IMG/VR virus record: IMGVR_UViG_3300006100_000010
DNA: 64,000 nt
Reading direction: 5' to 3' (one strand)
From: a virus
Taxonomy: Duplodnaviria; Heunggongvirae; Uroviricota; Caudoviricetes
The position numbers were made by a program, and so were the translations under genes. The notes beneath the pieces are model-generated. The model saw only the letters and a program-made list of their open reading frames with translations, was not told the DNA's origin and did not search any database. Positions 3,085-60,827 of this stretch are shown here, one piece after another; position 1 is the first letter of the stretch; the number at the start of each line of letters is the position of its first letter.

Positions 3085-3134
3085 AGAATTATCATTTTAA
3101 TTATTTATTCTATAGTTAGATGATAAAACTACAA

Positions 3135-4136: not shown

Positions 4137-4293
4137 ATTACTTATTATTTTAGACAAAAAAATCCTATCACTAACATAACTCGTAAGTGCGTGAGCATCA
4201 AAAAAATTAAGTAAGTGATAGGACTTTAGATCATCTTGATTATTTATTCAAGAGTCTTTTTAGGGAGTGTCTTGTCTAAGTTAAAAAATTGGA

Positions 4294-5519: not shown

Positions 5520-8500
5520 TTATAAATATGCACGAAATAATCCAAGCTTATCTGCACCGTTTGCCAAGAACTCATCAAGAAAGAGCAGGAAAAGGATATT
5601 TTTAGGGCTCAGTCTTTCCCATGAAGGAATATCGTCTTGACTTACCAGAGGGTGTATGCTACGAAGAGCCAACGATGCAACCTTAGAGTCAGTCGTCGAT
5701 ATAGTACCAGTAGAACTAACTTGTGGAATCTTTAAAACGGGCAAAATGGAATCAAGAGCGCCTGCGCCAGCTACAAGTATCGTCGGTAGTGGAGAGTTTG
5801 CAATAGGCGACATCACAGATTCAACGATGCCCAATTGTGCTTCCACTTTAGTAGCGTCAATTATGTTGAAGTTAGAGGATTTTGGAGAAAACTGTTTGGC
5901 CTTAGCAAATGCAGTAAATGTGGCAAATGCAGGAGGTCCTCCTGGTGGAATCAAGTATTGTACAGATTCTAGCAAGTTTAGGTTAACTCCATGCGCACCT
6001 TTTATTGCGCTAAGTATTTGATAAAAAGGATCAAGCAAGTGCTCTACCGTATCAAAGCCAAGTGTCACAAAATTCTTAAGGATTGCAAGTAGATCTCCTG
6101 GATTAAGACTCAAAAAGTCAAATGCCAGAGTCTGAAATGCTGGCAGTATGTCACGATCAGATGCAACTAGGATATTTCCAGAGCTGTATAGTGAAGAAGT
6201 TGGAGACTTGATTAATGGGACATGATTTGGATCATAGTTCCCATTAGACAGTATTGAAGTTTGTGAAGTATCGGTATCACAATTCACTATGGTGATTGAA
6301 GGATCTACTGTTGCGTGGCCGGATGAGCCATTTACAACGGGACCGGCTGCTGAACTTATACTTTGTGGAGTCGGACCAGATGCTGAATTTTCGTGAGGCA
6401 AAGAATTATTTAAAAAGGCAAGAAGCGCATCGGCTAGGACTTTCTTTAAGATATTTAGATCGATCGAGATCCTTGCAGGAAGAGCTGGTTCGAGTGCAAC
6501 GTTTGGTACTTTTATCTCAAATAGAGACGTAAGAACTCCAGCAAACGAACTGGCAAAGGTGAGCAGATTTATTGCAGGAGCAGGTATGCTTAGGGAAGCC
6601 GGTATGCTATTTTTAATGATCCCAATATATCCGCTAACAAGTTCCCTAGGTGAAATATTGGACTTACCTCCAAATAGTGACTTTATGTTTTGAGGAGAGA
6701 GCCCCATCACATATTGATCTAGCAATAGCTTAACCGATTCAAACACTGGAATTGCCGGTGATATTCCAGACAGGTCCAGTGAGAATGCTTTCTTGGCGCA
6801 GCATGGAGCAAAAGGATCAAACTCGACTTTAAGACTTGAAAGAGTTGCAATTACTTCTGGAGTCAGTGCAAGGATCTCCTTTATTCTTTGGTTTTCAAAA
6901 ATATTGGAAAGCTGAGCCTGACTCTTGGCTAATTGTGTTTGCAGCTTGGCTTTTGCTGCGGGATCGGTTTCTGAATTTACTCTTTTTTGAAGGTCAGCGA
7001 CTTCCTGTTGCTTTGCTGAAAGACTACCAAGATCCCTCTTTCCACTTACTGTATCGATAAGAGTCGAGTTTATCTCTAATATTAGCTTTTGTACTTTATT
7101 AAAGTCCTTCTCTATGTTTAGCTGATTGTTACTTTGTGCTGAATCTAGAGCGACCTGTTTAAGAGCGTCTTTACTTTTTGCAAGCTGAACAAGCAATATA
7201 TTTTTAACAGTGACACTTTCTTGTGAGATGAATTGAGTCCTGTACATGCTAGAGAACTCAAGGATATGCGCTAGAAAATCAAGTATTGCGTTTTGCTTAG
7301 GTTCAAGAGTAGAAGAATCCTTAGGTATTGTGACAGTAGGTAAGGTGATCCTATCAAAGTAGTGCATTAAGTCAGAGCGTATCGCTCCCAACTTTTCATC
7401 GAGCGAAACTCCATCGCTTTTCATTTGAGCACGGATCTCTTTTGCCTTTGTATCGTCACCATTGACTAGGGCAGATTGAAGATCAGAAAGGAGCCTCGCG
7501 GTTCTATCAGTTATCTTGGATTTAATTGAGTTTGCAGTTGACATTACAGGTTTGCCAAGATCGTCAATTCTCTGCAACACCGACCTCTTTGCGTCCTCAA
7601 TAACGTCCTTAATTGAGTCAGTCTTATCGATCATCTTTTGCAACTTCTCAGCATCAGTGAGGTTTGAAATTGACTGCTCAAGATTGGCCTTCTCCTTTGC
7701 GATCTTCATGAGTCGATTTGAATTTCCATATTTGGTTGCAATCGACTCAGCCTCGTTTAAAATATTTCTCTGCTGATTTAATTGCACGAGTTGAGTAGGA
7801 CTAAGATTAAAGTTGGCTCCATTCGCAAGTTCTTGAGCAAGTCGATTTGCTTTTTGTTCAGCAGCAAGAGCAGCAAGAGGCATCTGAACTCCGGGTTTGA
7901 TGGATTCGTCTTGTGAAGAGTATCCAAACTTTGGTGAGGTTCCCCTAATGGTAAATATGTGCTGTTTAAATCCGTTGCTTGAAACAAAAAATATGACCGG
8001 CGATATAAAGACACCGTTGATTGTCAAAAAGAAAACAATACTTCCCATCGGTGTAGAGATCACAATTAGAGGAAGCCAGATTACCGGCAAAGGTATTTTA
8101 ATTAAACCTCCAGGAGTAGGAATAGTAAGGCCAACTGGCCAATACCTCAATTCAGTGATGTTCGGCAGATTTGGTATGGGCAGCAATCCAAGTAGATTTG
8201 CGACCTTTGCAAATTCCATCCAATAACATAATTGGGTAGAATTAGGTAGAGTCGGATCGCTGCCATTTTTTATTGTGTTTACATATAGTGGGTCAGATCC
8301 TAATTTATTTGATGTGTCTCCACAATTCTGTACAGGCTGATCAATTTTATCAAAGCACTCAGGGCTCTCCTTCTTCAAAGAAGCCTTTACGTTATCTGGG
8401 GTAGGTTTTAACTTATCTACTTGAGACTGGACCCTAGCAATTTCCTGGTCAAGGTCAGTTGCCTTTTGAAGAAACTCTTGATTTTGACGCTTAATAGTCT

Positions 8501-9971
8501 CAATGACTCCAGAAGTTGCACTGTTTTGGCTCGGTAGATACACATTCACTCTGCCAAGAGCCAATGCAAATTGGATCTCCTTGCGTGCAATTGTTTGCAT
8601 CGTGAGTTTGATTGCTGCTTGCTTTGGACTGATAACTGCGGCTCTCACCTGAGCCTTTTTATTTTCAAGAGTCGTCTCAAATGACTGATAAAAATCTTGT
8701 AACTTTTTGAGATCCTTAATAAAGTACTCAGAACCGGCTTCCCTCTTCTTTTCAGAAGAAGTGCCCTTAACTAGAGGATCGACTGCAGAGGCTTCAGTCG
8801 TTAGACCGCGATCGTCTAGCGTAAAAAAGTTGTTTAGTGGGTCGTTTAGCAGGTTGTAGTACTTTGTGTATATGTCACCAGTTGGGTGCACGTTATTTCT
8901 TATCTCAAACTCGTAAACCTTAAATTGGTCTGAGTCCTCAAAGAAAGTTTGCTTTTCAAGCAGAGGATTCTTACGTATTGGAAAGTCAATCACATTAGAC
9001 TTTCTATCTCCAGTCTTTCGGTCAACTGATTCGCTCTCAAACTTAAAAGTATCGAGTTGTGGAATGGATATACTAAAGCTAAAGTAAGAAGTGTCTACGG
9101 CCTGCTGGATTGTTGTTGGTACCTGATCTATTATCTTTGCTCGAATACCTTCAGAGTATTGAAGAAAAAGGGAATCGACCGATTCAATAAGATTTTGATC
9201 TACATAGTTATTGTAGAGAAGAGCAATATTCTGTGAAATGTATGCAGGGTCTGCATTTGGAGATCCCAAGTAATCTATTATCTTTTGGTAAGTAGCATCA
9301 TTTAAGATAGGCACAGACTGGTCTTTGGAATCAAGTAAAGCCTGAGTGGCTGAGATCTCAGACTCAAGGTCAGCGATCTCAGAATTAAGATTCCCAACTG
9401 AAACAGAGTAAGCGCTAGTATTTGAGTTAGGAGTGATTGAATTTATCAGGTTTGCAAGATCTGATTTCTTACTATTTAACGATTGAGTTAGACCATTAAG
9501 CTTGGTAAGCAGAGGATCGAAATCGCCAAGTATTCTGGACATCTCAGCTGATCGCTCCTCATAATAATACTTGATCGGTATAAAGTTATCCTTATACTCA
9601 ATTAACTTATCAAGCAGGTTCTTGTACTTGTGATAGTTCTCAATTTGAACCTGAAGATCGCTAGTCACTCGGTCTACTGCATCAATACACTTTTTTGCCT
9701 CATTTGTGACTGCCTTTTTTACAAGAGCATCGTATTGATTTTTAACGGCATCTGTGGGAAGTGCTTGAAGTAATTTTGGGATTGCCAGATCATCACATGG
9801 AAGCTCGCTAATTGCACCAAATGGAGCACCGACTTCGTCAACCGGCTCACACAAGGTGGAATTTAGCAAGTCCTTTAATTGATCATCTGTAAACTTACTC
9901 TTAACTTCACTGGGTGGGATTCGTAGGACATTAGCTATCTCGTTTATTAATATGTCTAGGACAGAAGTCAA
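5520..9971 (-). CDS. large (1483 aa) coiled-coil protein with a central hydrophobic/TM segment; candidate tape-measure, ejection or internal virion protein
   Basis: Long heptad-like Q/L/K/E-rich stretches. A central strongly hydrophobic region (VIWLPLIVISTPMGSIVFFLTINGVFISPVIFFVSS) is present. The C-terminal third is S/T/P-rich. I recognised no enzymatic motifs. Confidence 0.3.
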   Translation of the reverse strand: MTSVLDILINEIANVLRIPPSEVKSKFTDDQLKDLLNSTLCEPVDEVGAPFGAISELPCDDLAIPKLLQALPTDAVKNQYDALVKKAVTNEAKKCIDAVDRVTSDLQVQIENYHKYKNLLDKLIEYKDNFIPIKYYYEERSAEMSRILGDFDPLLTKLNGLTQSLNSKKSDLANLINSITPNSNTSAYSVSVGNLNSEIADLESEISATQALLDSKDQSVPILNDATYQKIIDYLGSPNADPAYISQNIALLYNNYVDQNLIESVDSLFLQYSEGIRAKIIDQVPTTIQQAVDTSYFSFSISIPQLDTFKFESESVDRKTGDRKSNVIDFPIRKNPLLEKQTFFEDSDQFKVYEFEIRNNVHPTGDIYTKYYNLLNDPLNNFFTLDDRGLTTEASAVDPLVKGTSSEKKREAGSEYFIKDLKKLQDFYQSFETTLENKKAQVRAAVISPKQAAIKLTMQTIARKEIQFALALGRVNVYLPSQNSATSGVIETIKRQNQEFLQKATDLDQEIARVQSQVDKLKPTPDNVKASLKKESPECFDKIDQPVQNCGDTSNKLGSDPLYVNTIKNGSDPTLPNSTQLCYWMEFAKVANLLGLLPIPNLPNITELRYWPVGLTIPTPGGLIKIPLPVIWLPLIVISTPMGSIVFFLTINGVFISPVIFFVSSNGFKQHIFTIRGTSPKFGYSSQDESIKPGVQMPLAALAAEQKANRLAQELANGANFNLSPTQLVQLNQQRNILNEAESIATKYGNSNRLMKIAKEKANLEQSISNLTDAEKLQKMIDKTDSIKDVIEDAKRSVLQRIDDLGKPVMSTANSIKSKITDRTARLLSDLQSALVNGDDTKAKEIRAQMKSDGVSLDEKLGAIRSDLMHYFDRITLPTVTIPKDSSTLEPKQNAILDFLAHILEFSSMYRTQFISQESVTVKNILLVQLAKSKDALKQVALDSAQSNNQLNIEKDFNKVQKLILEINSTLIDTVSGKRDLGSLSAKQQEVADLQKRVNSETDPAAKAKLQTQLAKSQAQLSNIFENQRIKEILALTPEVIATLSSLKVEFDPFAPCCAKKAFSLDLSGISPAIPVFESVKLLLDQYVMGLSPQNIKSLFGGKSNISPRELVSGYIGIIKNSIPASLSIPAPAINLLTFASSFAGVLTSLFEIKVPNVALEPALPARISIDLNILKKVLADALLAFLNNSLPHENSASGPTPQSISSAAGPVVNGSSGHATVDPSITIVNCDTDTSQTSILSNGNYDPNHVPLIKSPTSSLYSSGNILVASDRDILPAFQTLAFDFLSLNPGDLLAILKNFVTLGFDTVEHLLDPFYQILSAIKGAHGVNLNLLESVQYLIPPGGPPAFATFTAFAKAKQFSPKSSNFNIIDATKVEAQLGIVESVMSPIANSPLPTILVAGAGALDSILPVLKIPQVSSTGTISTTDSKVASLALRSIHPLVSQDDIPSWERLSPKNILFLLFLDEFLANGADKLGLFRAYL

Positions 9972-10009
9972 ATCTGAGTGTTATTTTCTTATATTATTTA
10001 TCAGAAACA

Positions 10010-10037
10010 AAAAAGGCAGCCTAAATGGCTGCCTTTC
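10010..10037 (-). terminator. rho-independent terminator downstream of the GroEL gene
   Basis: Hairpin AAAGGCAGCC-taaat-GGCTGCCTTT, followed on the minus strand by TTTTTTGTTTC. It has the same AAAGGCAGC stem core as the terminator at 491-523. Confidence 0.6.
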
Positions 10038-10065
10038 AATTAAAATCGAACGCAAAATGGCCGTA

Positions 10066-12460
<2,395 letters not shown>

Positions 12461-16791: not shown

Positions 16792-18711
16792 TTATACGGT
16801 CTTAGTAGGATCTGCTGGAGCGTTTTGTTGTGGTGCCTTTTTAGAATTTAGCACTTCCAAGAGTTGCATTCCAAGGAGACCGCTGATAGAGCTATTTGCA
16901 GAATCTCCACCGCCTGAGATAAGCACTTCTGGTATGATTTTGATTCCGTTTTTACCGATTTCCTCAGTGATCTTGAATTTAGCAAAGTTGTCTCCACCCA
17001 TTGCTTTTACCTGTTGTTCATAGGCTTCAGCGGTTGACTTACCTATCGCTGCGATCTTTTTAGCTTCAGCGTCACCGGTGAGTTCTATTTGTTTTGCATC
17101 GGCTTCTGCGGTCATCACTTTTGCTTTTGCTTGAGCTGAGGCCTTTAGTTCAAGGGCTTTTGCTTCACCCTCAGATTTTTTAACTGCAGCTTCGGCTTCT
17201 CTTTGGGAGATTTCAACGGATTGCTGTGCTGCAACCATTTTTCCTTGCATGTCAGCCAGTGCCTTAGCTGATTCAAGAGTCTTACGTTGGTCTTGAGCTT
17301 TACGTTGAGTATCGTATGTCACCTTCTCTTCCTCTGCGATCTTACGATCGGTAAGAGTCTTCATCAGCGATTCTGGTGGCACAATATCTCCGATCAGGGT
17401 GTCTACTGCATGTACGTTGTATTCTTCTAGCACTTTGCTGATTGACTCCTTTGCAGCATCTTGGCGATTCTGTCTTGTAGAAAGGAATGAGATGACGTCT
17501 GAGTCTTGAGCAGAGTTACGGAAGTAGTTGCCGATTGTTGGTTCCAGAACTTGAGATACCAGATTCTGCATTGAACCGAATCTTGCGATCACTTTAGGCG
17601 CTTCGTTTGAAGGGATATGTATGATCTGGGATACGTCTAGGTTGAAAGGGAATCCGTCTTTAGAACGTACTGTGATTGTGCTCAGCTTTTCATCGAGTCG
17701 GTGGGACTCATTTCGACCGGATGCCCAGTTAAGTACGAGGTTAGTAGTTGGTACTACTTCTATTTTATGGGTGTATGGGTTTATTGCATACTTTCCAGGA
17801 TCAAGCGGAGTCGCCCAAACTCCTTTTTCTCCCTTACTTACGATATTTCCGTGCTTGAAGCTCTCACCGGTAACATCGGTTCCAACTTTTCCGACATATG
17901 CGATCACTACTCCTGCGCTACCTATCGGTATTTGAGTCATCGGCACCTTTTCTACCTGTACTGCCCATGGATTCAGGGAGTAGTTACCGGCTTGAATGAC
18001 CTGCTCTTGTAGACCACGTTGACCTCCACCTTCTAGGAACTTATCAAAGTCTTGGAAGTTGTTGTGTTTTTCAATTACGTTACCAGCAATCGTACCGATT
18101 TCAAGTTGTCTACCGTCAAGAGCAGTAATGACTCCGATTTGTCCGTCTTCGATATAGGTAAGATCTGCAACAGTCACATCAAATAAGAAGGTATTGATTC
18201 GGTAGACTCCGTTATTAAGGTAGCCTACCTGCTTACCTCTTTGTCCGCTATTGGAAAGAAAGGCAGTGGCATCTTGATAGTCATCGCAATCTACGTGTCT
18301 AGCAAGGATTGCACCTTTTGGAAGAGAGTCTCCATCCTTTGCTGAAAGCAATCCGATTTTACCTTTAGGGATCACTACAAGTGGTGATTGATCGATTGAA
18401 TATTGCCATGGCCAGTAGAACCAATAGAGACCTGGAGCAAGGGTCTTAGCTTGATAGCCTGGTTCTCCCTTTAGTGCAATGATCTTGCCATCGGGCATTG
18501 TTTTGTTTTCACCAAAGAGGACAAATTTTTTAGTCACCAGTCCGATCTTGTCCTCGGGAATTATTACCATTCCGAGTAGAGCGCGTAGGGTGAACTGATA
18601 GAAGACGAGTGCTAATACCGGAATTAGCAATAGAGCGTACGGTAGATAGTGTAAATACTGCATTTTGTGTTTTATAATTGTTAATGAAAAAATGTTAAGA
18701 TATGCTTGCAA
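16792..18711 (-). CDS. SPFH/band-7 (flotillin/YqiK-like) membrane protein
   Basis: An N-terminal TM helix (LHYLPYALLLIPVLALVFYQF) is followed by a long SPFH-type region. The C-terminus is an Ala/Glu/Lys-rich coiled coil (...EAEAAVKKSEGEAKALELKASAQAKAKVMTAEADAKQIELTGDAEAKK...), typical of flotillins. Confidence 0.65.
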   Translation of the reverse strand: MQAYLNIFSLTIIKHKMQYLHYLPYALLLIPVLALVFYQFTLRALLGMVIIPEDKIGLVTKKFVLFGENKTMPDGKIIALKGEPGYQAKTLAPGLYWFYWPWQYSIDQSPLVVIPKGKIGLLSAKDGDSLPKGAILARHVDCDDYQDATAFLSNSGQRGKQVGYLNNGVYRINTFLFDVTVADLTYIEDGQIGVITALDGRQLEIGTIAGNVIEKHNNFQDFDKFLEGGGQRGLQEQVIQAGNYSLNPWAVQVEKVPMTQIPIGSAGVVIAYVGKVGTDVTGESFKHGNIVSKGEKGVWATPLDPGKYAINPYTHKIEVVPTTNLVLNWASGRNESHRLDEKLSTITVRSKDGFPFNLDVSQIIHIPSNEAPKVIARFGSMQNLVSQVLEPTIGNYFRNSAQDSDVISFLSTRQNRQDAAKESISKVLEEYNVHAVDTLIGDIVPPESLMKTLTDRKIAEEEKVTYDTQRKAQDQRKTLESAKALADMQGKMVAAQQSVEISQREAEAAVKKSEGEAKALELKASAQAKAKVMTAEADAKQIELTGDAEAKKIAAIGKSTAEAYEQQVKAMGGDNFAKFKITEEIGKNGIKIIPEVLISGGGDSANSSISGLLGMQLLEVLNSKKAPQQNAPADPTKTV

Positions 18712-20281
18712 TTCTTTGACGGATTTCAGTTAGGGTCGTCTGGTTGTAGAATTTACCGTCTTCATAGATTGTATGTAGGAGACCTGTAGCTTCCTCTTCG
18801 TGAGTGCACTGAGTTTTTACCGCATATTCTCTGTCTTCTTCAAAGACTGCAACAAGACCCTTTAGAGATTTTTTAGTACCGTTATCTGTCACCGGATCCT
18901 TGTAGATGTCATACTCTTTTCCGTCAGCCTCAAACCAGGCACCTTTAGCAGCAAAGCCGAAAGTGTCACGTGTGTTGTATTGATATGTGTAAGATCCTAC
19001 ACCGAGTACAATATTAGTAGCGGCAAAACCTTTAGCTTCAAGACATTTGTAGATTTCTACTTGGCGGTCGAGCGTGATAGAATCGCCGTATATTGCTCCG
19101 ATATGCGGGTCAAGTACTTTGTAACCTTGTTCGTTTACTGTTCCTCCGAATATTTCCCAAAGTAGTTCTATAACTCCTTTGTGTTTTGGTTGATATACAT
19201 AATCTACAAAACCATCCTTAGTCTTAGTGTAATATTTTGTATTTTTATCCTCAAGGAAAATGAATTTTTCCCCTTCAGGAAGAATAAATGGTTTATTAAT
19301 ATCTTCCTTTTTGATAACTCGATATGGTTCAAATTCTCCACAAATAATATCTACAGGATCACCAGAGTCAGGACGTATTACGAGTTTACCGTCTCTTGCC
19401 ATAATAGCGTCTTTGTTAGCTGGAAGATACTTAGTAATAAGTGTCCACAAATCAAATGTATCTGCTACTATTGAAAGTATTCCTGTTGGAAAGTCTTGCA
19501 GCCAATCGGCAATCATTTGTTGCTCGCCTACTGTGAATATTTTAGTGGTTGACACTGAGTGTTCTGAGGCATTCACTGAACTGATGCAAACCTGATTTTC
19601 TGGCTCATCATAGAAATAGCGAGCAGCTGGGATCACGATAATTGTATCGGATCCCTTGTGTGAAGATGCATGACCTAGGCCAGAGGAGAGCATATCCCAA
19701 GGAGAAAGTCCGCGAGCACTAAAATCGTGAGCCATGTAGTCAATTAGCCATGCATTTTTAGAGTCAGTTTTCATTACCCACTCTACTAGGTTTCTACGGT
19801 ATTGTAGAGCAATTGTTGCTGATGTCGAAGGCTTCCATGCAAGAGAAGAAATGATTGTCTCCAAGTAAAGGGTCAGCCAGGCAAATCCGTCAACCGTATT
19901 GACAAATGTCATGTGAGGAATGTTTGGTAGAGTCTCGATACCTTCAGGTAAAGATTTTACCCTGACTGGTAGGTATTGAAGATCATGAAGAGCCTCAAAG
20001 TGAGAGGCATCATATGGCATGCCAAGGTATGCAGAAATGTCCATACCGAACTTTACTGCAGATTCCTTAGGGAGGGCAAAAAAGTTTTCTGCATATTCAT
20101 CGTGTAACCAGCGCATGACCAGTTGTTGGCCGAAGGATACGATCTTTTTAATGTTTCCTGGAGCGTATTTTACGCTTCTTGGAATCCAGGTGCCGTAAAG
20201 TTTTGTTGTTCCTTTAGCGAGCATTCTCCTGTGGCCGAGCTTATAGCCATCGGCATACCATATTGCAGGGGGTTTAAACAT
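18695..20281 (-). CDS. nicotinamide phosphoribosyltransferase family protein (NAMPT/NadV-like; could equally be the Namat-type nicotinamide ADP-ribose transferase of phage NARP1)
   Basis: 528 aa. The N-terminus reads ...WYADGYKLGHRRM... Overall it resembles type II phosphoribosyltransferases of the NAMPT family, and it lies adjacent to a Prs-like gene. Confidence 0.7.
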   Translation of the reverse strand: MFKPPAIWYADGYKLGHRRMLAKGTTKLYGTWIPRSVKYAPGNIKKIVSFGQQLVMRWLHDEYAENFFALPKESAVKFGMDISAYLGMPYDASHFEALHDLQYLPVRVKSLPEGIETLPNIPHMTFVNTVDGFAWLTLYLETIISSLAWKPSTSATIALQYRRNLVEWVMKTDSKNAWLIDYMAHDFSARGLSPWDMLSSGLGHASSHKGSDTIIVIPAARYFYDEPENQVCISSVNASEHSVSTTKIFTVGEQQMIADWLQDFPTGILSIVADTFDLWTLITKYLPANKDAIMARDGKLVIRPDSGDPVDIICGEFEPYRVIKKEDINKPFILPEGEKFIFLEDKNTKYYTKTKDGFVDYVYQPKHKGVIELLWEIFGGTVNEQGYKVLDPHIGAIYGDSITLDRQVEIYKCLEAKGFAATNIVLGVGSYTYQYNTRDTFGFAAKGAWFEADGKEYDIYKDPVTDNGTKKSLKGLVAVFEEDREYAVKTQCTHEEEATGLLHTIYEDGKFYNQTTLTEIRQRIASIS

Positions 20282-20793: not shown

Positions 20794-21669
20794 TTAGAAT
20801 ATTCCAAGTTGAGTGACTAACGGATCAGTTATGTCTGAGTAGCTATTGCTGCAGTAGATTCCGTCTAGCGACTTGCGCAAGTCATCAAGCCCTGCTGAGA
20901 ATATTCCGTGTGAGATGATTAGATATGTCTTGCCAGTTCTTTCAGGTTGAGTCCTTTTGATCTCATCTGCAATGTTTAAGAAGGTGCGACCGCCGTCACA
21001 AATGTCATCGATGATGACCAAGTTTTTTGAGAAGTGGTCAATACGATAAGGAACATGGGTCTTACTGAGTTTACCATCGGTGCCTCTGTATTTGCTACAG
21101 GTGAGTATTTCACCGTCAAATTTTAGAGAACTTGCAACCTTGTAGATCTTTTTTAGACTGCCTCCATCCGGTGAAACAAAAATGCAGGTGTTAAGAAACT
21201 CAGCAGGTGTGCAGTTTTGCTTTTCAGCTTCTCGTGAGATGAATGCAGTCACTAGTGATGTGTTATCGAGTACCTTAAGTCGGTTGATGCAGGCAGCGGC
21301 AACGTCTGAGTGCACGTCAAAGCACAGCACTTGCTTAAAGTTTAGAGAGTTTAGGATTGGCGCAATAACGTCACGAAGGTAAGAAGTACCTCCATTAACA
21401 AACTGACGGTCGCTACGTGCTCCAAGTATGTATGGAACATAGAGGGTAATTTCCTCTATTCCCAAATTTCTCAGTGCCTTGGTCGCACAGATAATTATCT
21501 CAAGATCCCGGAATGAATTGAACCTAGATCGGATTGTGATAGGTTCGGTGAGTGAGGTCGGTACTCTTGGATAATCGATAATAGTTACGTCCTGTTGCCC
21601 GTCTGGAAAACTGGAAATTTTGTAATTAATGTCTGAGCTATTCGGTTGTACTAGATTTAGGATTTTCAT
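20794..21669 (-). CDS. ribose-phosphate pyrophosphokinase-like protein (Prs family; possibly the Adps-type ADP-ribose diphosphokinase of NARP1)
   Basis: PRTase-type PRPP-binding loop VIIDDICDGGRT, an upstream Prs-like segment YVPYILGARSDR, and a length of 291 aa. Confidence 0.65.
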   Translation of the reverse strand: MKILNLVQPNSSDINYKISSFPDGQQDVTIIDYPRVPTSLTEPITIRSRFNSFRDLEIIICATKALRNLGIEEITLYVPYILGARSDRQFVNGGTSYLRDVIAPILNSLNFKQVLCFDVHSDVAAACINRLKVLDNTSLVTAFISREAEKQNCTPAEFLNTCIFVSPDGGSLKKIYKVASSLKFDGEILTCSKYRGTDGKLSKTHVPYRIDHFSKNLVIIDDICDGGRTFLNIADEIKRTQPERTGKTYLIISHGIFSAGLDDLRKSLDGIYCSNSYSDITDPLVTQLGIF

Positions 21670-22643: not shown

Positions 22644-22886
22644 TAAATCCGGTGTCTTTAAAAAATTCCCGCGTACGGGCGCCTGGGAGTAGTACTAGAG
22701 TAACACTATAGTATAATTAAAGAAAGAATAAAGTAAGTAGCTAGTACTATATAGCTACACCCACCCACCACCCTAGTTATACTAGTGAAAAATGTGATGG
22801 TTTTAAAAAATAAATACTTTATATTAGATGAAACTATTTTTCTATCCCAGTGTATAACTTGATTAGGCTTAAAATAATTCCTATGA
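22644..22886. promoter_or_regulatory. divergent intergenic control region between the minus-strand operon (uvdE first) and the plus-strand late module
   Basis: 243 bp non-coding, the largest non-coding gap in the window. It contains a GC-rich island (CCCGCGTACGGGCGCCTGGG) in an AT-rich genome, the palindrome TAGTACTA, the inverted repeat GTAGCTA-gtactata-TAGCTAC, a CACCCACCCACCACCC tract, and AT-rich stretches that are candidate promoters in both directions. Confidence 0.5.
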
Positions 22887-23546
22887 ATGACCATTATCAG
22901 CATCGACTTTTCAATATTGTACCCTGGAGCATGCATCTGTCGCGATTTTAAAGAATTTAAGTGGATCGCACTAGCTAATACTACAGTTCGTAAAAAAGAT
23001 TCTGATAATTACGATTACATTAATTCAACATATCCAAATATCCAGATCCTAAGAACCACTTCAAGAAGGAAAAAAGAACAAGAGTACCATCTTACTGAAA
23101 GAACCAAGCTGATCAATTACCTTGAAGCTATCTACATGTTTGTCAGTGCTATTGAAAATGAAGTAAAAGGGGAAGAGTGTATGGTTTGCATAGAAGGAAT
23201 CTCATTTGGGTCAAGCGGTAACTCACTAGTAGATATTGCTCAGGCCACTGGGATCCTAAAACAGCAGCTCATCTCCAGAATACTTAATTTCAATCACGAC
23301 AAGCTTTTTGTATTTAGCCCAAGCGAACTTAAAAACGCAATTGGCTGTAAAGGCAACGCAAACAAACAAGACATTCTAGCTAAATTTAAAAGTGACCCAA
23401 TCATCGAATCTGTAAAGGAGTCTGACCTATTTAAGCTTATTAACAAAGAGCAATGGGTAATAGAAGGGGATAAGATCCTTTCACCGATCATCGATATGGT
23501 AGATGCCTATTTAGGTGTGACCAAGATCCATGGTCTCCTAAAATAA
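22887..23546 (+). CDS. putative RuvC-like Holliday junction resolvase (RNase H fold)
   Basis: The N-terminus reads MTIISIDFS (RuvC/A22-like first catalytic Asp in an I-x-I-D-x-G/S context). A central ...VCIEGISFG... supplies an acidic residue. The C-terminus reads IDMVDAYLG (the D-x-x-D-A motif of RuvC). Confidence 0.4.
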   Translation: MTIISIDFSILYPGACICRDFKEFKWIALANTTVRKKDSDNYDYINSTYPNIQILRTTSRRKKEQEYHLTERTKLINYLEAIYMFVSAIENEVKGEECMVCIEGISFGSSGNSLVDIAQATGILKQQLISRILNFNHDKLFVFSPSELKNAIGCKGNANKQDILAKFKSDPIIESVKESDLFKLINKEQWVIEGDKILSPIIDMVDAYLGVTKIHGLLK

Positions 23547-23555: not shown

Positions 23556-23954
23556 ATGGCTAGAAAAAAACGTGGTGACAAAGACTACATCAATAACAAC
23601 GATTTCACCGATGAAATAATAAAGTGTAAAAAGGCAGGGAAGCTAAGCGCTGCTGCGATTGACAGTTTTATTATTCTTGCAAATAGAGCAGTAGTTCGTC
23701 TCTACTTTAGGGATGATCGCGACAGGGAAGATTGTGTACAGTCTGCAATATTCGATTGTATTAAGTATTGGCAGAGTTTTGACGAGACCAGATCTGCAAA
23801 ACCCAATGCCTTTGCCTATTTTACACAGTTATGTAAAAATGGGTATGCTAAAGAGTGGAAAAAGATCCACAAGAAGACCGGACTGGATAAAGACGAGACG
23901 CTAGAATTCCTATCACTTAGCACCAGCGGTGAAAGTTCAATTTACAGCATCTAA
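23556..23954 (+). CDS. T4 gp55-like late-transcription sigma factor (sigma region 2 only)
   Basis: 132 aa. Segments align with T4 gp55: NNDFTDEIIKCKKAG with NNKELLQAIIDWKTE, DSFIILANRAVVRLYF with DTIGLAIMLIAEGLSKRF, and KPNAFAYFTQLCKNGYAKEWKK with [21 protein letters not shown]. It sits at the head of the structural gene array. Confidence 0.65.
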   Translation: MARKKRGDKDYINNNDFTDEIIKCKKAGKLSAAAIDSFIILANRAVVRLYFRDDRDREDCVQSAIFDCIKYWQSFDETRSAKPNAFAYFTQLCKNGYAKEWKKIHKKTGLDKDETLEFLSLSTSGESSIYSI

Positions 23955-26900
23955 TTTAGGGATACTAATAAATAATAAAAATAGCTTTCCCTGGATGGTA
24001 GTTCAAAACCTAAGTTTCTTTAATAAATTCGGAAGTAACCTCAACTTAAAGTACAACACAAGTACAAATATATGGGAAGGTAAGATCTATTTTGAGGGCA
24101 TATCCAACTACCTTTTTGATAATGAGAACCTGTTTATTTTAGAAAACGTTCAATATGGGCGAGTTCCTTGGAAGTTTCCCACCCTTGGAGTCGGAGAGTA
24201 CTTAGAGTTTTCTTGGAGCTCAAATGAAACGGCTAACGAGTTCTTTCTCTATGAGGTAGTTAGGGACACTCAATTAGATTCTGAGTTCATTAGTAAAATA
24301 GACTCTAAAGTTGTCGCATTTTCAGATTACTCATCAGCGACCAGCGGAACCCTAGATATGGGATTTCCTTTGCAGGTAAATATTGCGTTCAGTCCAACAA
24401 ATGAAGTAAACTTTCAAAGAACTCTCAACATCTTTTATTCAAGCCTTGCAGGAAAGGTCCAAATAGCACAAATCGATTTTTACGGTGAGGGTATTGAGGA
24501 GGACGTAAGATATAGGACGTGGGCACAAAACTTTGGAATCAGGTTCCTACGTGAGGACGCTAATATCCTAAAGGACTATGACATTAAGGAGGCAATCCCA
24601 GACTACGCTGAGCTCAATCGAATAAGAAAGGAGCTTCTTGTCAATAAAGAACAGGTGTACCCATATATCGGAACCTATAAAGGTCTCTCTAATTTTGTAA
24701 ACATGCTTGGTTATAAGGACGTTCTACAGATTAAAGAATATTGGCAAAATGTTAACCCTCGTTCGACCAACACCAATAAATTGATCATGGTAGACATTAG
24801 CGATTACCTAAATGCTAGTGTGATTGATACCCTTGACCTTGTCGATAAGAACAAGCAGATTCGTGAGGGTAAGCAATTTAAGAAGACTGAGTTTCTTGCT
24901 CTAGTTTATGAGTTCACAAAGGAGGACGGCACTTATGACTACGAGGGAATTCCCAATGTGGTTGAGACCACCGATTTTACTGTGAACGAGATTTTCTACA
25001 AGCTTAATCTACTAAACGATAAGCTAAAGTTAGAGTTTCTACCGGTAAACGTAAAGATCAAGGACATTATTGGGGAGTTCATCTATTTTCAAAGAATAAG
25101 AATAGCTAACTGGAATGATTCAGACAGGATCTCAACCCTTAATTTCAACGATCATGCAGACGTTGCAATATACCCAGACATAAATCATGACATTACTCTA
25201 CGCGCTCTAGATCCACTTTTTAGGATGCAAGATCCAGGCGGAATAGATTTTGGAGTCGGCAGAATCAATAACAATGGAGCAGACAACCCATTTGAGTTTA
25301 ATCAAAGGTATTCAACTCGTGACGAGGTTGTCAAAATAATTGACAACTTCAAGACTTTTTACAATGAAATAAGGGATCAGAGATTCCCAGATATTGGTAA
25401 AAAACTGACTTGGGAATTTGGCGATGATCCAGAAAGAGTCATTGGTGCTCCGGTGATATTTACATTAGAGACTGGAGGATTCACCCTAGCTGACCTTTCA
25501 GGAGTACAAATAGGTGAGCTAGGAGCCTCTGCTCCAGGATTGAGTCCGTATTGGACCCTTGGCAATATTGATTTTGGAAACTATTATGAAGTCAATTGGC
25601 GAATAGTACAAGACACCCCAAATCCCTACTCATTTTCCCTTAGGGGTAAGCTGATAGACCTTTATGAGCTGCCTCATGTATTACCTTATGCTGGTAAATA
25701 TCGAATCATTGCTGAGCTCTATGACTTTAGCGGAAACATCAGCACATTTAGTAGATTTGTCACAGTACAAAGCGATCAAAAGCCTCAAATTATCGGTATC
25801 ACTCGACTTGAGGACAAGTTTAATTACCAACTTGCAAACCTAACCAACGTGAGACTGCAGGATTTTGGAGCTACTCCTTTCTACTATCCAAAGGTCAATG
25901 TTTTAAACAATGAAGATGCTGCCGTTAAGTTTGACGTATACAAAAATCTACTTGAGTGGATTGCATTCTATAAGAATCGTTATGGAATGGGCCAAAACCT
26001 GTATGATGTTGAGCTATATGATACAGATTTAGGTCAGTATGTTGCCTACACTGATCCAGCACAAAGACACCCTAAGAAACTCTATTGGGGACTAGGCAAT
26101 GGCGACATGTCTCTGACTCTTAATGATTTCAATGGAGTCACTCTGGACTCTCTTTACTGGTTACGCATGGCTGATTGCATCTACTTAGATGACTTTGAAG
26201 CCGGCTTCTATCTTGATCCACCTCATCCTGGAACAATAATTCGCATGTCTCTCTATTCGGATTATGTTGTACCGACTCACTCTACCTTAGATGAGCTGAT
26301 TGGATTAATGAATGCAAGCGACCATCCGGGAATCAACCGATTTAATTATGCGATCGTTGGTGATAGAATACACGCACAAGCAAATCACATAAGCAAAGAG
26401 GAATACCAAATGCTTTTTTATCCAGGTAGTGCAAGTCCAGGCGGAAGCCCTTACTTTTCTCCAGTGCCCAGTCCATACACTAGTCCAGGAGGAAGTCCAT
26501 TTTTTCCAGGATCCATGCATGGAGACAAGTACACCTATTTTCTACCGCGTAAAGTGTATTCACAATCGGTGTTGGATTACCTAGCAAATCTAGCACCAAT
26601 GCTTGACATTGAGACGCTCTTCCTAAACGCGCCTCTTCGAGACCAATTAAGCGGAGCTGTTCAGGATCCAAACTATTGGGTGGAAAAAAACTACTGGAGA
26701 TTTAGCAATGATTTGCAAAATGGATTCTTGCCAACTTTCCTAGATCAAAACGCATTTAATATAGCTGACATTAAGATGTTCAATGAGTCATTTGCAATAC
26801 CACAGGAATCAATTGTGTTTTTTGTTGTAAATAACTTAGATGGAAAGAACGACTTTATTTGGACGCTAATTGATTCAGTGACTGGTCTGGAAGTAGTCAG

Positions 26901-27105
26901 AGCCAAATCTGTTCCTTTTTTCGTGTGGAAGTTTAAGGACCTTGGTACATTCACACTAAAAGTAGAAGTAATAGACAATAGCGGATCACATTACATAAAT
27001 GAAGTACAAAACTACATCAATGTTCTTGATAAAAGAATGTATATTGCCGGAACTGAGCAAAGATTAAATCAAAGAAAAGCAGATTTAATTAAGAGCGGGC
27101 TATAA
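23929..27105 (+). CDS. large virion structural protein (1058 aa); function unassigned
   Basis: Long ORF with aromatic, Asn and Asp-rich beta-type composition. It is the first gene of the translationally coupled late array and overlaps the gp55-like gene by 26 nt. It contains a P/S/G-rich linker (SPGGSPYFSPVPSPYTSPGGSPFFPGS). Confidence 0.45.
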   Translation: MKVQFTASNLGILINNKNSFPWMVVQNLSFFNKFGSNLNLKYNTSTNIWEGKIYFEGISNYLFDNENLFILENVQYGRVPWKFPTLGVGEYLEFSWSSNETANEFFLYEVVRDTQLDSEFISKIDSKVVAFSDYSSATSGTLDMGFPLQVNIAFSPTNEVNFQRTLNIFYSSLAGKVQIAQIDFYGEGIEEDVRYRTWAQNFGIRFLREDANILKDYDIKEAIPDYAELNRIRKELLVNKEQVYPYIGTYKGLSNFVNMLGYKDVLQIKEYWQNVNPRSTNTNKLIMVDISDYLNASVIDTLDLVDKNKQIREGKQFKKTEFLALVYEFTKEDGTYDYEGIPNVVETTDFTVNEIFYKLNLLNDKLKLEFLPVNVKIKDIIGEFIYFQRIRIANWNDSDRISTLNFNDHADVAIYPDINHDITLRALDPLFRMQDPGGIDFGVGRINNNGADNPFEFNQRYSTRDEVVKIIDNFKTFYNEIRDQRFPDIGKKLTWEFGDDPERVIGAPVIFTLETGGFTLADLSGVQIGELGASAPGLSPYWTLGNIDFGNYYEVNWRIVQDTPNPYSFSLRGKLIDLYELPHVLPYAGKYRIIAELYDFSGNISTFSRFVTVQSDQKPQIIGITRLEDKFNYQLANLTNVRLQDFGATPFYYPKVNVLNNEDAAVKFDVYKNLLEWIAFYKNRYGMGQNLYDVELYDTDLGQYVAYTDPAQRHPKKLYWGLGNGDMSLTLNDFNGVTLDSLYWLRMADCIYLDDFEAGFYLDPPHPGTIIRMSLYSDYVVPTHSTLDELIGLMNASDHPGINRFNYAIVGDRIHAQANHISKEEYQMLFYPGSASPGGSPYFSPVPSPYTSPGGSPFFPGSMHGDKYTYFLPRKVYSQSVLDYLANLAPMLDIETLFLNAPLRDQLSGAVQDPNYWVEKNYWRFSNDLQNGFLPTFLDQNAFNIADIKMFNESFAIPQESIVFFVVNNLDGKNDFIWTLIDSVTGLEVVRAKSVPFFVWKFKDLGTFTLKVEVIDNSGSHYINEVQNYINVLDKRMYIAGTEQRLNQRKADLIKSGL

Positions 27106-27137
27106 GGCTAATAAATAAACTAAAATAACCTAAGAAA

Positions 27138-28115
27138 ATGGCATTTTCACCAATTTCATTACCTATCCAGGAAATATTGTTAAGCAATTTTATCCCTGAC
27201 ATTGCAACAATAACCAATGCAAACGACTTGATTTTTCAAGACACCATTGAAAACCTAATCAACAATTTTGAAATAGATCTTAATGCTCTTTCAATTGGAA
27301 CGACTAATGCAATAGCATCAGTAAAGGCAAATACAGTCATCCTACAGGACACTGGATTTATTTTTCAAACCGGTGTTCCAAACCAAATACTTTCTACCCT
27401 AACTAAGAACGGTAGCACCGAATCAGTGTTTATGGTTGATAGAATCACTGCAAATAAATCAATCACAGTTGACGTTGCCACAATTAACACAGCGACAGTA
27501 AACACAGCTGCAACTTTTGCGGGTCCTGCTACATTTAATAGCTCAATAAAGTACACACAATCGTTAATTGAGTCTAAGCAAGCAATAACAACTACCTTAG
27601 CAAAGAACGGAACTACTGCTGAGGCTAGAATCACATTGACTAAGACTTCAACTAAAAACATATTTGTTACTTTAAGTGCAACAACAGCACCTACTGCAAA
27701 TCCAGTGTATGATGGAGTTAGTGCAATCGATCCTACGATAACTAAGATTGTTCTCTATATTGACTTTGATGCAACCAATCCACCAGCACAAAACACACCA
27801 TTTACAATATATCTAGCCGATATCGTTCAGTCAACTGGAGCATCAATCTTTCCTGCAGTAATCTCAGGTCTAATTCCTTTTGTGATAAGAGGCGGCGTGA
27901 ATAACAACACGACAAATGCTGTCTATTTGCATAACTCACCAGATCCAAACGGATATGATATTGGAATCAACATAAACGGAACTAACACTATGTTAAATAG
28001 CGTTACTCCTTCACCATACAACAGCAACCTTTCAATGTTCTACATACTTGATAGCACGTCAAAGGATCGTCTGGTTGTGACTGGAATGACTGGATTGGAA
28101 TTCTTCCACCTATAA
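27138..28115 (+). CDS. structural protein (325 aa), T/N/A-rich repetitive, fiber-like
   Basis: Low-complexity threonine/asparagine-rich repeats (TINTATVNTAATFAGPATFNSS...) typical of fibrous tail or whisker proteins. Confidence 0.4.
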   Translation: MAFSPISLPIQEILLSNFIPDIATITNANDLIFQDTIENLINNFEIDLNALSIGTTNAIASVKANTVILQDTGFIFQTGVPNQILSTLTKNGSTESVFMVDRITANKSITVDVATINTATVNTAATFAGPATFNSSIKYTQSLIESKQAITTTLAKNGTTAEARITLTKTSTKNIFVTLSATTAPTANPVYDGVSAIDPTITKIVLYIDFDATNPPAQNTPFTIYLADIVQSTGASIFPAVISGLIPFVIRGGVNNNTTNAVYLHNSPDPNGYDIGININGTNTMLNSVTPSPYNSNLSMFYILDSTSKDRLVVTGMTGLEFFHL

Positions 28116-39025: not shown

Positions 39026-42000
39026 ATGCCAATCAGGATAAACCTTAAGGAGTTGTTTCCAGCAGACGCTCAGGAAATAACAGTAGACAAAATAAACTTC
39101 AACTTCAATAAGTTATTGGAATTGGGAGTAGGCGAGCCCGGACCTATTGGTAATACTGGAGGGGACGGTCCTGCCGGACCGACTGGTCTAACTGGTCCAC
39201 AGGGAATTAGAGGAAATGCCTGGTATGTTGATACTGTGACTACACCAACTTCTTTTCCCGGACAAATGGTTGGTGACTTCTACTTAAACTCAAACACTCT
39301 TGCTGTTTGGCAGTATATCGATGCAAGTCCTACACCTATCTGGCATCAACTTTTTAATATTGCTACAATAATCGATAATTATTTGGCAAGCACGCCTTCA
39401 CCTTTTAATAGAGGTTTAGATATAGGATCTCCACCTGATACTAGGTTTATCATGTTTGGACACAGAACAGATTCAGCTAACGATAATTCACAAGGTGGAA
39501 TTACGCCAAGTGCTTCCACAAATGACGTGTTGTTCTTAACTAACTTCAATGAGAGCGCGATCACTTCGGTTTTGCCAGATTCATTCTATAATTCATTACT
39601 TTCAATTGTGGTAGATCAAAAAACGGTCGGTCGTAACCACATGGAAATGGGAGTTTTATATTTAGATGGTTCTGGAAATCCAGTACTAACTACCGTAAAT
39701 GAGACCTTTAAGATGCGATTTGAAAGAGACTCAACTAGTGTACATACAGCTCACCTTGACCATCGATATAGAGAAGTATTTTCATTAGACATACCGGATG
39801 GAGGAATTACAACAAATCGTTATAACGGAGTCTTTGAATTTAGATCGCCTAAATATTTTCCAAGCCCAGCAGTATCTGACCGCTCTACTTTTGTGATAGG
39901 TTCAAGATATGGACTAGACGAATATTTTACATCCGGAACTCATATTGCAGACGGCATACTTGCATTTGACCGAACTCATTCAGCTGGAGGAAGCTTAGGT
40001 ATTGCAGGTGGATTTACAATTCCAAATTTTCCAACAATCAATACCGGATACGTTGATAACTCAACTGACCAGTCATATTTAGTGTTGGACGCAGTTGGCA
40101 ACAGCAAAGCCATTTATCTTAACGATACTACGTATCAGACTGGCGGAAACTTTGTTCAACTTGGAAACACTACGCCTAGAGCAACATCTCTAATTACTAG
40201 TACACATGCGGGTTACGGTACACATGGTGCAGCGACTTATGGTGCAGCGACTTATGGAAATACAATTTATGTAATAGGAGGAGATTCTAATTTATCCGGA
40301 GATCTTTCAACGTTTAGCGGAGATCTAAATTCATATAGCATACAGGATCCAAATAATCCATCCTCTGTAATATCAATAAATTTACCGTATTCTCCAGCAT
40401 ATTCAGGTCAACCTGTTGGTGCAGGAGTATCAGATATTGCAATTTCTGGAAAGTTTGGGTACATTGCAACAAATCAATCTTACGCATTTAGTACTCCTGG
40501 AACTCCTGTATACTTTCAAGTAGTAGAGTTTGATGCATCTACTGGATTACCAGTAGTTGTCGGTTCACTTGGCGAAACTGATATATATGGCGATGCGTAT
40601 AGACCATATGACTGTTTGTATAGAGTTAAATTAAAGGGAAATTATGCAATATTAATTACAAATGCATTACCGCATTCTTCATCACCAACTCAACTTGGAG
40701 GATCGCCGGATGGTATAGTATATGATGGTAGAATCTTACCAATTGACATTACTGATCCAACAAATCCAATATATGCAGTAAATCCTTCTTCTCCATATTA
40801 TCTATGGGCATCCGTATATCCTCATAAAATCACAGGAAGTTCAACTTCATTTATGGATCTTGATATATCAGATGATATTGCTGCAACTTTAACTTGGGAG
40901 CAGACTCTTGCTTCAACATGTGCAGTTAAGGTTTACATTTCAATATTTGACACTAGCGGACTCACCCAAAATCCTCAATCTGCAATTCAATTTAAGACCA
41001 ATTCTGCAGACTTACTAAGTGACACAGGAGTAGGTGTAACGTTATATAATAAACTAAGCAAAAAAGGAGGAATTGCAGTAAATCGAAAAAACGTTTATGC
41101 TGCATACTCAGTCTATGATGGAACTCACTGGACAGTAACATTAAGCTGCAATAGTCTTTCGGAAGACCTGGGAACAATCACTCAACTTGCAAGTCTTTCA
41201 GTATCTACAAATGCAATATTTACTGAGTGTACTCAAATAAAACAACTCGGAAACAGTATCTATCTTTGTGCTCATACTGCAAATTTAAGTGGACTTTCAT
41301 CTACTGTATTTAAAGTAGACGTATCCGATCCTTCAAATCCTACTCTAATTTGGTCAAAATCATTTCTTTCAATTCAAATTGAAAGATTTGTAATAGTTGG
41401 GAAACATATATATGGAGTAGCAAATCAGTTTGCTACAACTACACCGGTTCACTCTTATCCAGGAGGAATAGTTGCACTTGATTTTGATGGAATCTACACA
41501 GGTGGAGCACACATTGAATCTCTAAGAAGTGATGAAATTACCGTGATGAAAAACCTAAGTGTCGGTGAGCACCTAACGGTTCATAATGATGTAAATATCG
41601 GAGGAGGACTTAATGTTACTGGAGGAATGAGCGTTAGCGGAGAGGAGTTTAGCATTAGAACTCAGACTGGAACTTTTACATCCAATAATAATTCTGGATT
41701 TACTATTACTGCGCCTAGCGGTGGTGCAAGTACAAGTCTTAATATAGTTAGTCATGGTACAGGTAATTCAAACATTACATTATATAACGAATCAGATGAA
41801 ATGCTTCGCCTTAGGTCTTATCCAGCTTCAAACTATTCTGCAATTGAAACGGGTACAGGTAAGGCACTATACATAGTTCCGTCAGATGCAATAGTGCATA
41901 TAAATTCTGTACTTCAATTAAATGGACTTGCAAGTGCACCATCGTCTCCATCAGAGGGAATGATATATTATAATTCAGCTACGAAGAAAGCCTATTGCTA

Positions 42001-43786: not shown

Positions 43787-43882
43787 ACGTTCCTTCTTTT
43801 TATTATTTATTTTACTACGCGAGCGATCCTAGTTTAATCCAATCTTTCAAATAAATAAAATAAATACTAGCCCAAGGTTTAC

Positions 43883-46819: not shown

Positions 46820-46833
46820 AATAAATAATACTA

Positions 46834-52278: not shown

Positions 52279-52317
52279 GACCCATTATTTTTATTATTTA
52301 TTATAGTGGGACTGGGC

Positions 52318-53643: not shown

Positions 53644-53730
53644 CTAACTGATCTTTATTCTATTTATTCTAAACTGGCTTCATCTTAAATAAATAAAGGT
53701 AGGAAGATCTCCTCAAAATAAGTAAAACAC

Positions 53731-54195: not shown

Positions 54196-54222
54196 GCGAT
54201 ACACTAAAAGTATATCGCTTAT
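54187..54222 (-). terminator. rho-independent terminator immediately 3' of the tmRNA (minus strand)
   Basis: Stem AATAAGCGATA / TATCGCTTATT (10-11 bp) with an 11-nt loop, followed on the minus strand by TTTTTT. The tmRNA 3' acceptor end is 2 nt upstream. Confidence 0.6.
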
Positions 54223-54223
54223 T

Positions 54224-60789: not shown

Positions 60790-60827
60790 CGATCTGTTAC
60801 TAAAATAAATAACTAAAAGAGCAACTT

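Follow-up and report, generated by a model that had tools for sequence, protein, structure and literature searches.

A gp55-family late sigma factor and candidate -10-only late promoters in an uncultured T4-related phage

The locus described here raises the question whether a phage whose gene order is not T4-like serves its late genes with a T4-type late sigma factor. It is located in a stretch of 64,000 nucleotides (~39% G+C), referred to as the window. The initial annotation had recognized in the small product of this locus a counterpart of T4 gp55, encoded at the head of the structural module and overlapping the first structural gene, and had derived from it a T4-style late transcription coupled to replication. 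The gene under study is:

23556-23954, plus strand: gp55-family late sigma factor gene, an uninterrupted open reading frame with an ATG start, 132 aa

Our analysis makes it highly probable that the product is a late sigma factor of the gp55 family, belongs to an uncultured phage related to T4, and reads -10-only promoters of late transcription units.

Family, fold and promoter-contacting residues of the 132-aa protein

Four helices make up a domain of the protein that resembles sigma region 2 (aa ~14-104), and its C-terminal tail (...TLEFLSLSTSGESSIYSI) is conserved. In the profile search aa 4-108 matched PHROG 234, 'late sigma transcription factor', with E 3e-14, as expected from the initial annotation. 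The sole Pfam domain seen was Sigma70_r2, borderline with 23 bits and thus just under the cut-off of 24. T4 gp55 was matched by BLASTP with E 1e-6; in the comparison of relatives S-SSM5 gp55 was found at 1e-11 and T4 gp55 at 2e-6 over aa 9-118. Searching with the 132-aa protein by tblastn resulted in matches in 350 phage records, and the annotated features among the matches listed were mostly gp55 or late sigma factor. The best matches came from the uncultured phage LR756500.1 (462 kb, unannotated; 38%) and then from Lak megaphages (35%). These huge-phage matches were followed by cyanomyovirus gp55 with 26-29% over nearly full length. The Lak megaphage homologue was not usable for comparison, because its frame is broken by stops (table 11). 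Metagenomes provided hundreds of homologues with 64-80% identity, and NCBI lists a homologue with 77% identity, CAB4175714.1, as 'RNA polymerase sigma factor'. On DNA level, no relatives of the window were found in the phage collection.

To search the PDB, we used a profile of this lineage and the homologue of the 462-kb phage, from which T4 and cyanophage sequences were left out. T4 gp55 (7D7C chain F, 7d7c_F) was the only significant sequence (E 3.4e-5), with residues 8-108 aligned to residues 7-117. The gp55 likeness had initially been noticed in three segments: Y-I-N-N..F in the N-terminal part (YVNN in T4), F-D-E-T, and N-A-F-A-Y-F-T-Q. All three proved to carry columns that are invariant in the family (Y11, N14, F75, N84, A87, Y88 and T90), as judged across gp55 of T4, cyanophages, pelagiphages and rhizobiophages together with this lineage.

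An AlphaFold2 (AF2) model, calculated from a shallower alignment (A3), reached a mean pLDDT of 80 and placed helices at residues 14-27, 32-47, 54-74, and 85-104. The top Foldseek match of this model was T4 gp55 in the open promoter complex (7d7c_F; probability 1.00, TM 0.62/0.60), and ranks 2-6 were occupied by region 2 domains including those of sigmaE, SigC, and sigmaS. According to Pfam and the AF2 model, regions 3 and 4 are absent and the protein represents a stand-alone region 2-like fold.

It has been shown by cryo-EM that T4 gp55 flips the non-template adenines -12, -9 and -8 into pockets, and alanine mutants of N13, L54, R57, F86, H95, Y97 and T99 are impaired in open-complex formation (PMC7892883). 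These residues correspond to N14, A45, R48, F75, F86, Y88 and T90 of the 132-aa protein (alignment A1). Five out of seven are identical (N14, R48, F75, Y88 and T90). The change of H95 to F is the state of all non-coliphage gp55 sequences aligned (cyanophage, pelagiphage, rhizobiophage), and apart from this only L54 differs, being A45 here. T4 R114, a template-strand contact, aligns with H105. From the acidic helix-3 residues touching the beta' clamp helices one out of three is kept, namely the first (D59). The protein stops 28 residues past helix 4, and helix H5 of the T4 helix-loop-helix (H4-H5) is missing. Since S-SSM5 gp55 (156 aa) is likewise shorter than T4 gp55, the H4-H5 extension is treated here as a T4-specific elaboration and not as family-defining. 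Profile, fold, and promoter-binding residues identify the 132-aa protein as a bona fide gp55-family late sigma factor.

The ATAAATA element and the genes that it precedes

T4-type late promoters had also been predicted in the initial annotation. The exact T4 octamer TATAAATA occurs in the window at chance level (3 found versus 4.4 expected), with no copy before a virion gene. Reading the upstream regions directly revealed a recurrent AATAAATAA, which was the basis for switching to the core ATAAATA. The prediction stands in modified form for this core and for AATAAATA, which are enriched, intergenic, directed at genes, and conserved, and fails for the exact octamer. AATAAATA was found 18 times in the window versus 6.3 times expected, a number reached by none of 100 shuffles. 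No other 7-mer is as strongly enriched as ATAAATA within 50 nt upstream of ORFs, where 13 out of its 23 occurrences fall (binomial p 9e-18). The 5.4% non-coding part of the window harbors 15 of the 23, and every one of these is directed at a gene start at a distance of 7-84 nt, mostly 17-26 nt. They stand where runs of genes begin and, in divergent intergenic regions, on both strands; tightly packed internal genes are devoid of them. Outside the window ATAAATA precedes the tail sheath gene, a tail-tube-sized gene, and a scaffold-like gene. The following sites were located in the window:

3102-3108, minus strand: ATAAATA, 18 nt before the GIY-YIG homing endonuclease gene 2380-3084 (minus strand)
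4241-4247, minus strand: ATAAATA, 84 nt before nrdB
9995-10001, minus strand: ATAAATA, 24 nt before the 1483-aa gene 5520-9971 (minus strand), with a terminator-like hairpin and T-run directly upstream
23967-23975, plus strand: late-promoter-like AATAAATAA in the 40-nt spacer from the sigma stop to the next ATG
27111-27117, plus strand: ATAAATA, 21 nt before gene 27138-28115
43804-43810, minus strand: ATAAATA before gene 42980-43786, in the divergent region 43804-43866
43851-43857 and 43860-43866, plus strand: two copies of ATAAATA before the head-closure-like gene 43883-46027
46821-46827, plus strand: ATAAATA before gene 46834-47403
52295-52301, minus strand: ATAAATA, 17 nt before gene 49549-52278 (minus strand)
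53661-53667, minus strand: ATAAATA before gene 52318-53643, in the divergent region 53661-53695
53689-53695, plus strand: ATAAATA before gene 53731-54195, in the same divergent region
54707-54713, plus strand: ATAAATA, 22 nt before the gp6-like baseplate wedge gene 54735-56402
60805-60811, plus strand: ATAAATA, 17 nt before gene 60828-61181

The logo of 22 sites yielded the consensus aATAAATAAnAnAAA and a conserved AAA at the expected start of a T4-type transcript; none of the 45 positions upstream of the motif is conserved, so that a -35 element is lacking. At least two of the ATAAATA sites directly follow a hairpin and T-run. The comparison of relatives provides the strongest evidence: in the spacer 3' of the sigma stop codon, ATAAATA is invariant in all 24 related loci compared (64-80% protein identity) and is embedded in variable flanks; its distance to the conserved ATG is 18-23 nt in 25 orthologous spacers. 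The conserved core corresponds to the T4 promoter positions -12 to -6 and takes in the pocketed adenines -12, -9 and -8. A late promoter of the form NATAAATA was described earlier for cyanomyoviruses (PMC2984593), and late promoter variation at -13/-12 is also known from Aeromonas phage Aeh1 (PMC2988020). Judged by sequence, the motif of this phage is the NATAAATA variant known from cyanomyoviruses.

The immediate surroundings of the sigma gene and two distant genes of relevance are:

22810-22857, plus strand: putative control region of the RuvC-sigma unit
22887-23546, plus strand: RuvC-like resolvase gene (PHROG 159, E 1.4e-7), 9 nt upstream of the sigma gene
23995-27105, plus strand: large downstream gene with corrected start at ATG 23995 (PHROG 28177, unknown function)
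39026-42031, plus strand: tail-fibre-like protein (tail fibre PHROGs), last of a run of large plus-strand genes
59699-60325, plus strand: second phage sigma factor, conventional two-domain type, 208 aa, 36 kb away

The overlap of the sigma gene with the next gene, as given in the initial annotation, arises only from a GTG start of the downstream ORF at 23929. In 24 out of 24 relatives an in-frame stop is located between the sigma stop and a conserved ATG that equals position 23995 of the window. Hence, ATG 23995 is the true start, and both genes are separated by a 40-nt spacer with a late-type promoter. The N-terminus conserved in the relatives reads M-x-V-Q-N-L-x-F-F. On the evidence of these aligned sequences the overlap is an artefact of ORF calling. 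The position at the head of a structural module was borne out in so far as very large genes follow behind late-type promoters in a run that ends with the tail-fibre-like gene; for the first of them, 23995-27105, the sole match was to a PHROG of unknown function.

The pair of RuvC-like gene and sigma gene is conserved in relatives, and both genes probably belong to one transcription unit. In its putative control region an ATAAATA (22810-22816) is found ~70 nt upstream of the ATG; nearer to the gene a GAA(A)C-like box is followed by GTATAA (22852-22857), which resembles a -10 element. ATAAATA was found ~70 nt before the RuvC-like ATG in 17 of the 19 relatives with a located gene start, and most of them carry GTATAA or GTACAA at the corresponding place closer to the gene. 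A GAAC box 17-18 nt upstream of the -10-like element was recognized by eye in a few relatives; in the window, the general early pattern GAAC-N16-19-GTAYAA is not enriched. This arrangement of sequence elements suggests early or middle expression of the unit combined with late positive feedback. The second sigma factor matched Sigma70_r2 (E 1.8e-10), Sigma70_r4_2 weakly (E 0.006), and PHROG 1740 (E 1.3e-12). It is placed outside the gp55 system and is part of the transcription programme of the phage.

The motif and the pocket residues point to the 132-aa protein as the factor that reads ATAAATA, and the genes behind this motif are presumably late genes. In the mechanism which we propose, the protein would dock as a stand-alone sigma region 2 on the core of the host RNA polymerase and recognise the -10-only promoter aATAAATAAnAnAAA by flipping the non-template adenines -12, -9 and -8, as T4 gp55 does. 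The promoters would lie 7-36 nt (mostly 17-26) ahead of the gene with which each late transcription unit begins. Such units are predicted to comprise the tail sheath, baseplate wedge, scaffold-like, tail-fibre-like, and other virion genes, and one late promoter would act immediately downstream of the sigma gene itself. In a weaker step of this scheme, a sliding clamp together with a co-activator of the gp33 type may boost activity in the way known from T4.

Phage lineage, partner proteins and alternative readings

The PHROG scan of the window identified nrdA and nrdB split by a GIY-YIG homing endonuclease, GroEL, exonucleases, NAMPT, Prs, a UvdE-like endonuclease, the gp6-like wedge, and the second sigma factor. 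A gp17-like terminase shares 30-35% with T4-like terminases. To extend this inventory we walked along the genome through identical or related contigs, seven leftward and three rightward. On the basis of PHROGs or Pfam the walk added gp32, RNase H, GroES, the tail sheath, UvsX, a gp41-like helicase, and gp47/gp46, as well as a family B polymerase present as its N-terminal 474 aa only. Tail fibres, thymidylate synthase, and glycosyltransferases were also encountered leftward, and unknown virion-sized genes, a ligase, ThyA, and fibre-like genes rightward. Topoisomerase II subunits, DnaJ, the ligase, baseplate-like genes, and a capsid-protein-sized gene, the putative major capsid protein gene of the leftward walk, were recognized by eye from the translations. 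Early and late genes are interspersed, confirming the earlier remark that gene order is not T4-like. Despite this order, gene content is clearly T4-like. The phage is an uncultured T4-related member of a widespread aquatic lineage with mosaic gene order, and probably a myovirus because homologues of tail sheath and baseplate wedge are present. Contigs of the lineage reach 176-207 kb, and we estimate its genomes at roughly 180-210 kb.

Searches with PHROGs and by tblastn with the T4 and S-SSM5 proteins covered ~148 kb, i.e. ~129 kb contiguous sequence of the phage and ~19 kb of a relative, and in these gp33, gp45, gp44 and gp62 were not found. This covers the genome incompletely, so that missing partners are not evidence of their absence. 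The C-terminal half of the DNA polymerase, which is indispensable, is also missing from the mapped part. Thus, the 30-60 kb beyond the map must contain replication genes.

Two small proteins were considered as gp33 candidates and discarded. A 99-aa protein encoded between gp32 and RNase H, the position of gp33/dsbA in T4, gave hhalign probabilities of <1% versus gp33 and DsbA and had no match in the PDB. A 109-aa protein encoded between UvsX and gp41 ends in DFISV...FYTIP; its DFIS is not conserved in relatives, and this tail region reads as the wing of a winged helix.

Across 120 homologues the tail of the sigma factor keeps the pattern (S/T)L(E/D)F(I/L)S(L/I)xxxG(E/D)xS(I/V)Y(S/T)(I/V); it resembles the clamp-binding tails of T4 (SLDFLY in gp55, TLDFLL in gp33, SLDFLFG in gp43). 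In some members its F is replaced (VETI, VQMI), and the motif is positioned 12 residues from the C-terminus and is not terminal. In the AF2 model the tail forms a beta hairpin of low confidence. Among real genes, an L-D/E-F-L/I tail was found only in the sigma factor and in the product of 27138-28115. A dependence on gp33 and the sliding clamp, and hence the replication coupling proposed in the initial annotation, may apply to this phage, although we hold it less firmly than the promoter assignment. It is inferred because the core gene set reported for T4-related phages includes gene 45 as well as gene 55 (PMC2988020), and because the tail partly resembles the T4 clamp-binding motif.

The same observations can be read differently. 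A gp55-type sigma factor might read ATAAATA without the gp33 and gp45 of T4, either independently of a clamp or with its own tail tethering another partner. In the latter case the beta-hairpin-like tail ...F-I-S-L...S-I-Y-S-I-COOH could contact the host clamp, another phage protein, or RNA polymerase. This would account for the failure to find gp33, clamp, and clamp loader in the sequence examined. It is also in line with the 38%-identical huge-phage homologue, in which the terminal IYSI is kept and the LDFL-like part is not, and with S-SSM5 gp55, which has no LDFL tail either. Furthermore, clamp binding by distant (non-coliphage) homologues of gp33 and gp55 is not obvious from sequence (PMC2988020), and T4 gp55 alone supports basal late transcription (PMC7892883). 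However, the incomplete map lacks half of the polymerase as well, gene 45 is as much a core gene as gene 55, and most members of the lineage carry S/T-L-D/E-F-I/L, which is near to SLDFL of T4. We therefore regard independence from the T4 partners as unlikely. Somewhat more doubtful still is the specific version of a streamlined gp55-type sigma factor without helix 5 of the helix-loop-helix and with an IYSI-COOH tail, in which the gp33/gp45 tether has been replaced or no clamp is used. If true, it would represent a second, clamp-independent way to run a gp55-type late programme, in a lineage that also encodes a conventional sigma factor.

Other readings concern the motif itself. ATAAATA might be read by the 208-aa sigma factor (59699-60325) or by a host sigma factor, and the 132-aa protein might then act, for example, as a competitor or inhibitor of the host sigma. 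A second sigma factor, in which region 2 is combined with a weak region 4, is indeed encoded among the genes preceded by the motif, but a two-domain sigma factor is expected to need a -35 element, which is not conserved upstream of the 22 sites. Moreover, the motif equals the experimentally defined recognition element of gp55 minus its first base, and the 132-aa protein shows conservation of the residues that form the pockets for A-12, A-9 and A-8. Hence, recognition by another factor appears very improbable. An AT-rich signal for translation initiation or RNA stability instead of a promoter would fit the narrow distance between motif and ATG in the orthologous spacers, and Shine-Dalgarno sequences are, by eye, weak or absent in several leaders. 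Such a signal is hardly to be expected only where gene runs begin and on the two strands of divergent regions, directly after a hairpin and T-run in at least two cases, and with AAA at the expected T4-type start; we give this explanation very little credence. The reading as gp55-dependent, -10-only late promoters is preferred.

Comparison with known sigma factors

T4 gp55 (PDB 7D7C/7D7D) is the reference for this system. Both proteins belong to one family by profile and fold, consist of a stand-alone region 2 without region 4, share 5 out of 7 promoter-pocket residues and a promoter with ATAAATA core and no -35 element, and carry a hydrophobic/acidic motif near the C-terminus (SLDFLYEAND in T4). 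In contrast, identity is ~23% only, and with 132 versus 185 aa the protein described here is 53 aa shorter, lacking the second helix of the helix-loop-helix and the long linker. Its tail motif is located 12 residues internally and the protein ends with IYSI. The first T of TATAAATA is not conserved in the promoters of this phage, and the sigma gene, unlike that of T4, is located beside a RuvC-like gene and before virion genes.

With gp55 of cyanomyoviruses such as S-SSM5 and S-PM2 the protein shares the small size, 26-31% identity over nearly full length, F at the position of T4 H95, and the promoter form NATAAATA, which is identical (PMC2984593). Their tails are unrelated in sequence. In cyanophages gp55 is encoded beside gp47/gp46/gp45/gp44, whereas a long distance separates the sigma gene of this phage from gp46/47 and clamp genes are not nearby. 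The sigma factor and its promoters are an ordinary member of the known gp55 system. The pairing of gp55 with NATAAATA, known from coliphages and cyanomyoviruses, would thereby be extended to a lineage with scrambled gene order, which supports the view of this sigma-promoter pair as an ancient, portable core of the T4 superfamily. A late-transcription machinery and ~20 putative late promoters can now be assigned to an abundant uncultured T4-related lineage. Its late transcription units may be readable directly from sequence, and the start of the adjacent large gene has been corrected.

ECF (group 4) sigma factors such as sigmaE of E. coli share the basic region 2 fold and the borderline match to Sigma70_r2, but have a region 4 and need a -35 element, neither of which applies to the 132-aa protein. 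The closest relatives in the databases are gp55-like proteins from huge phages, namely LR756500.1 and the Lak megaphages, whose genomes are 2-3 times larger and unannotated. The LR756500.1 protein, with 124 aa, has the same IYSI end.

Control regions and transcription-unit boundaries

The control region (22810-22857, + strand) of the unit formed by the RuvC-like resolvase gene and the gp55-family late sigma factor gene is conserved, and the same region was compared in the related loci L241-L263. Its elements follow the order GGTTTT, a few bases, the late-promoter-like core ATAAATA, about 30 nt, and a -10-like GTATAA or GTACAA. In a few relatives only, a GAAC box lies 17-18 nt upstream of the GTATAA/GTACAA sequence. 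Possibly this region represents an early or middle promoter stacked with a late promoter. At 9995-10045 (- strand) and near position 12732 (- strand) of L196, one of the contigs extending the map to the left of the window, ATAAATA is directly preceded by a G+C-rich hairpin and a T-run. At these boundaries between transcription units, a terminator-like structure is followed by a late-type promoter.

Sigma factors and other proteins

The late-promoter-driven gene at 27138-28115 (+ strand) encodes a 325-aa product with the C-terminal end ...GMTGLEFFHL. Among real gene products of the mapped region, a C-terminal L-E-F-hydrophobic tail was found only in this protein and in the gp55-family factor. 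In a homologue of the latter from a Lak megaphage (Prevotella phage Lak-A1, 233723-234828; locus L265) the frame is interrupted by stops under table 11, which would fit stop-codon recoding in Lak megaphages. Two further genes:

59699-60325, + strand: second sigma factor, of conventional type and 208 aa long (Sigma70_r2, E 1.8e-10; region 4 weak)
14604-14903 of contig L003: conserved 99-aa protein, between gp32 and RNase H

The second sigma factor gene lies shortly past the large terminase gene and is flanked by an acidic 99-aa ORF upstream (59396-59695) and a membrane-anchored 155-aa ORF downstream. The protein from L003 has the conserved core LLFGTIxYxDDxAYExF...ASANxAQxKGxFxLxESE; no resemblance was detected to gp33, to DsbA or to anything in the PDB. 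Its position corresponds exactly to that of T4 genes 59, 33 and dsbA.

Replication, translation and metabolic genes

3585-5009 of contig L006: family B DNA polymerase, 474-aa ORF, in the same phage and roughly 8.5 kb beyond the left end of the window
2380-3084, - strand: GIY-YIG homing endonuclease gene, between nrdA (546-2351) and nrdB (3135-4157)
54222-54639, - strand: phage-encoded tmRNA-like gene (ARAGORN and Rfam RF00023)
10066-11706, - strand: GroEL
16051-16350 of L003: GroES (Cpn10)
16570-17568 of L196: DnaJ-like protein, recognised by eye
18695-20281: NAMPT
20794-21669: Prs

The DNA polymerase gene is split: the ORF stops soon past motif A, and the C-terminal half with motifs B and C is not adjacent and was not detected in the approximately 148 kb examined. 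A separate late-type promoter element, ATAAATA at 3102-3108, serves the homing endonuclease gene. The tmRNA-like gene is housed in a 540-nt gap without genes; ARAGORN called it with the tag peptide DAKSTFTFEDAMSFVGAEVAIAA, and Rfam gave a full-model match at identical coordinates (E 1.6e-16; 44.8 bits against a gathering cut-off of 47 bits). GroEL, GroES and the DnaJ-like protein give this phage a full chaperone set, and it also carries NAMPT and Prs as an NAD salvage pair.
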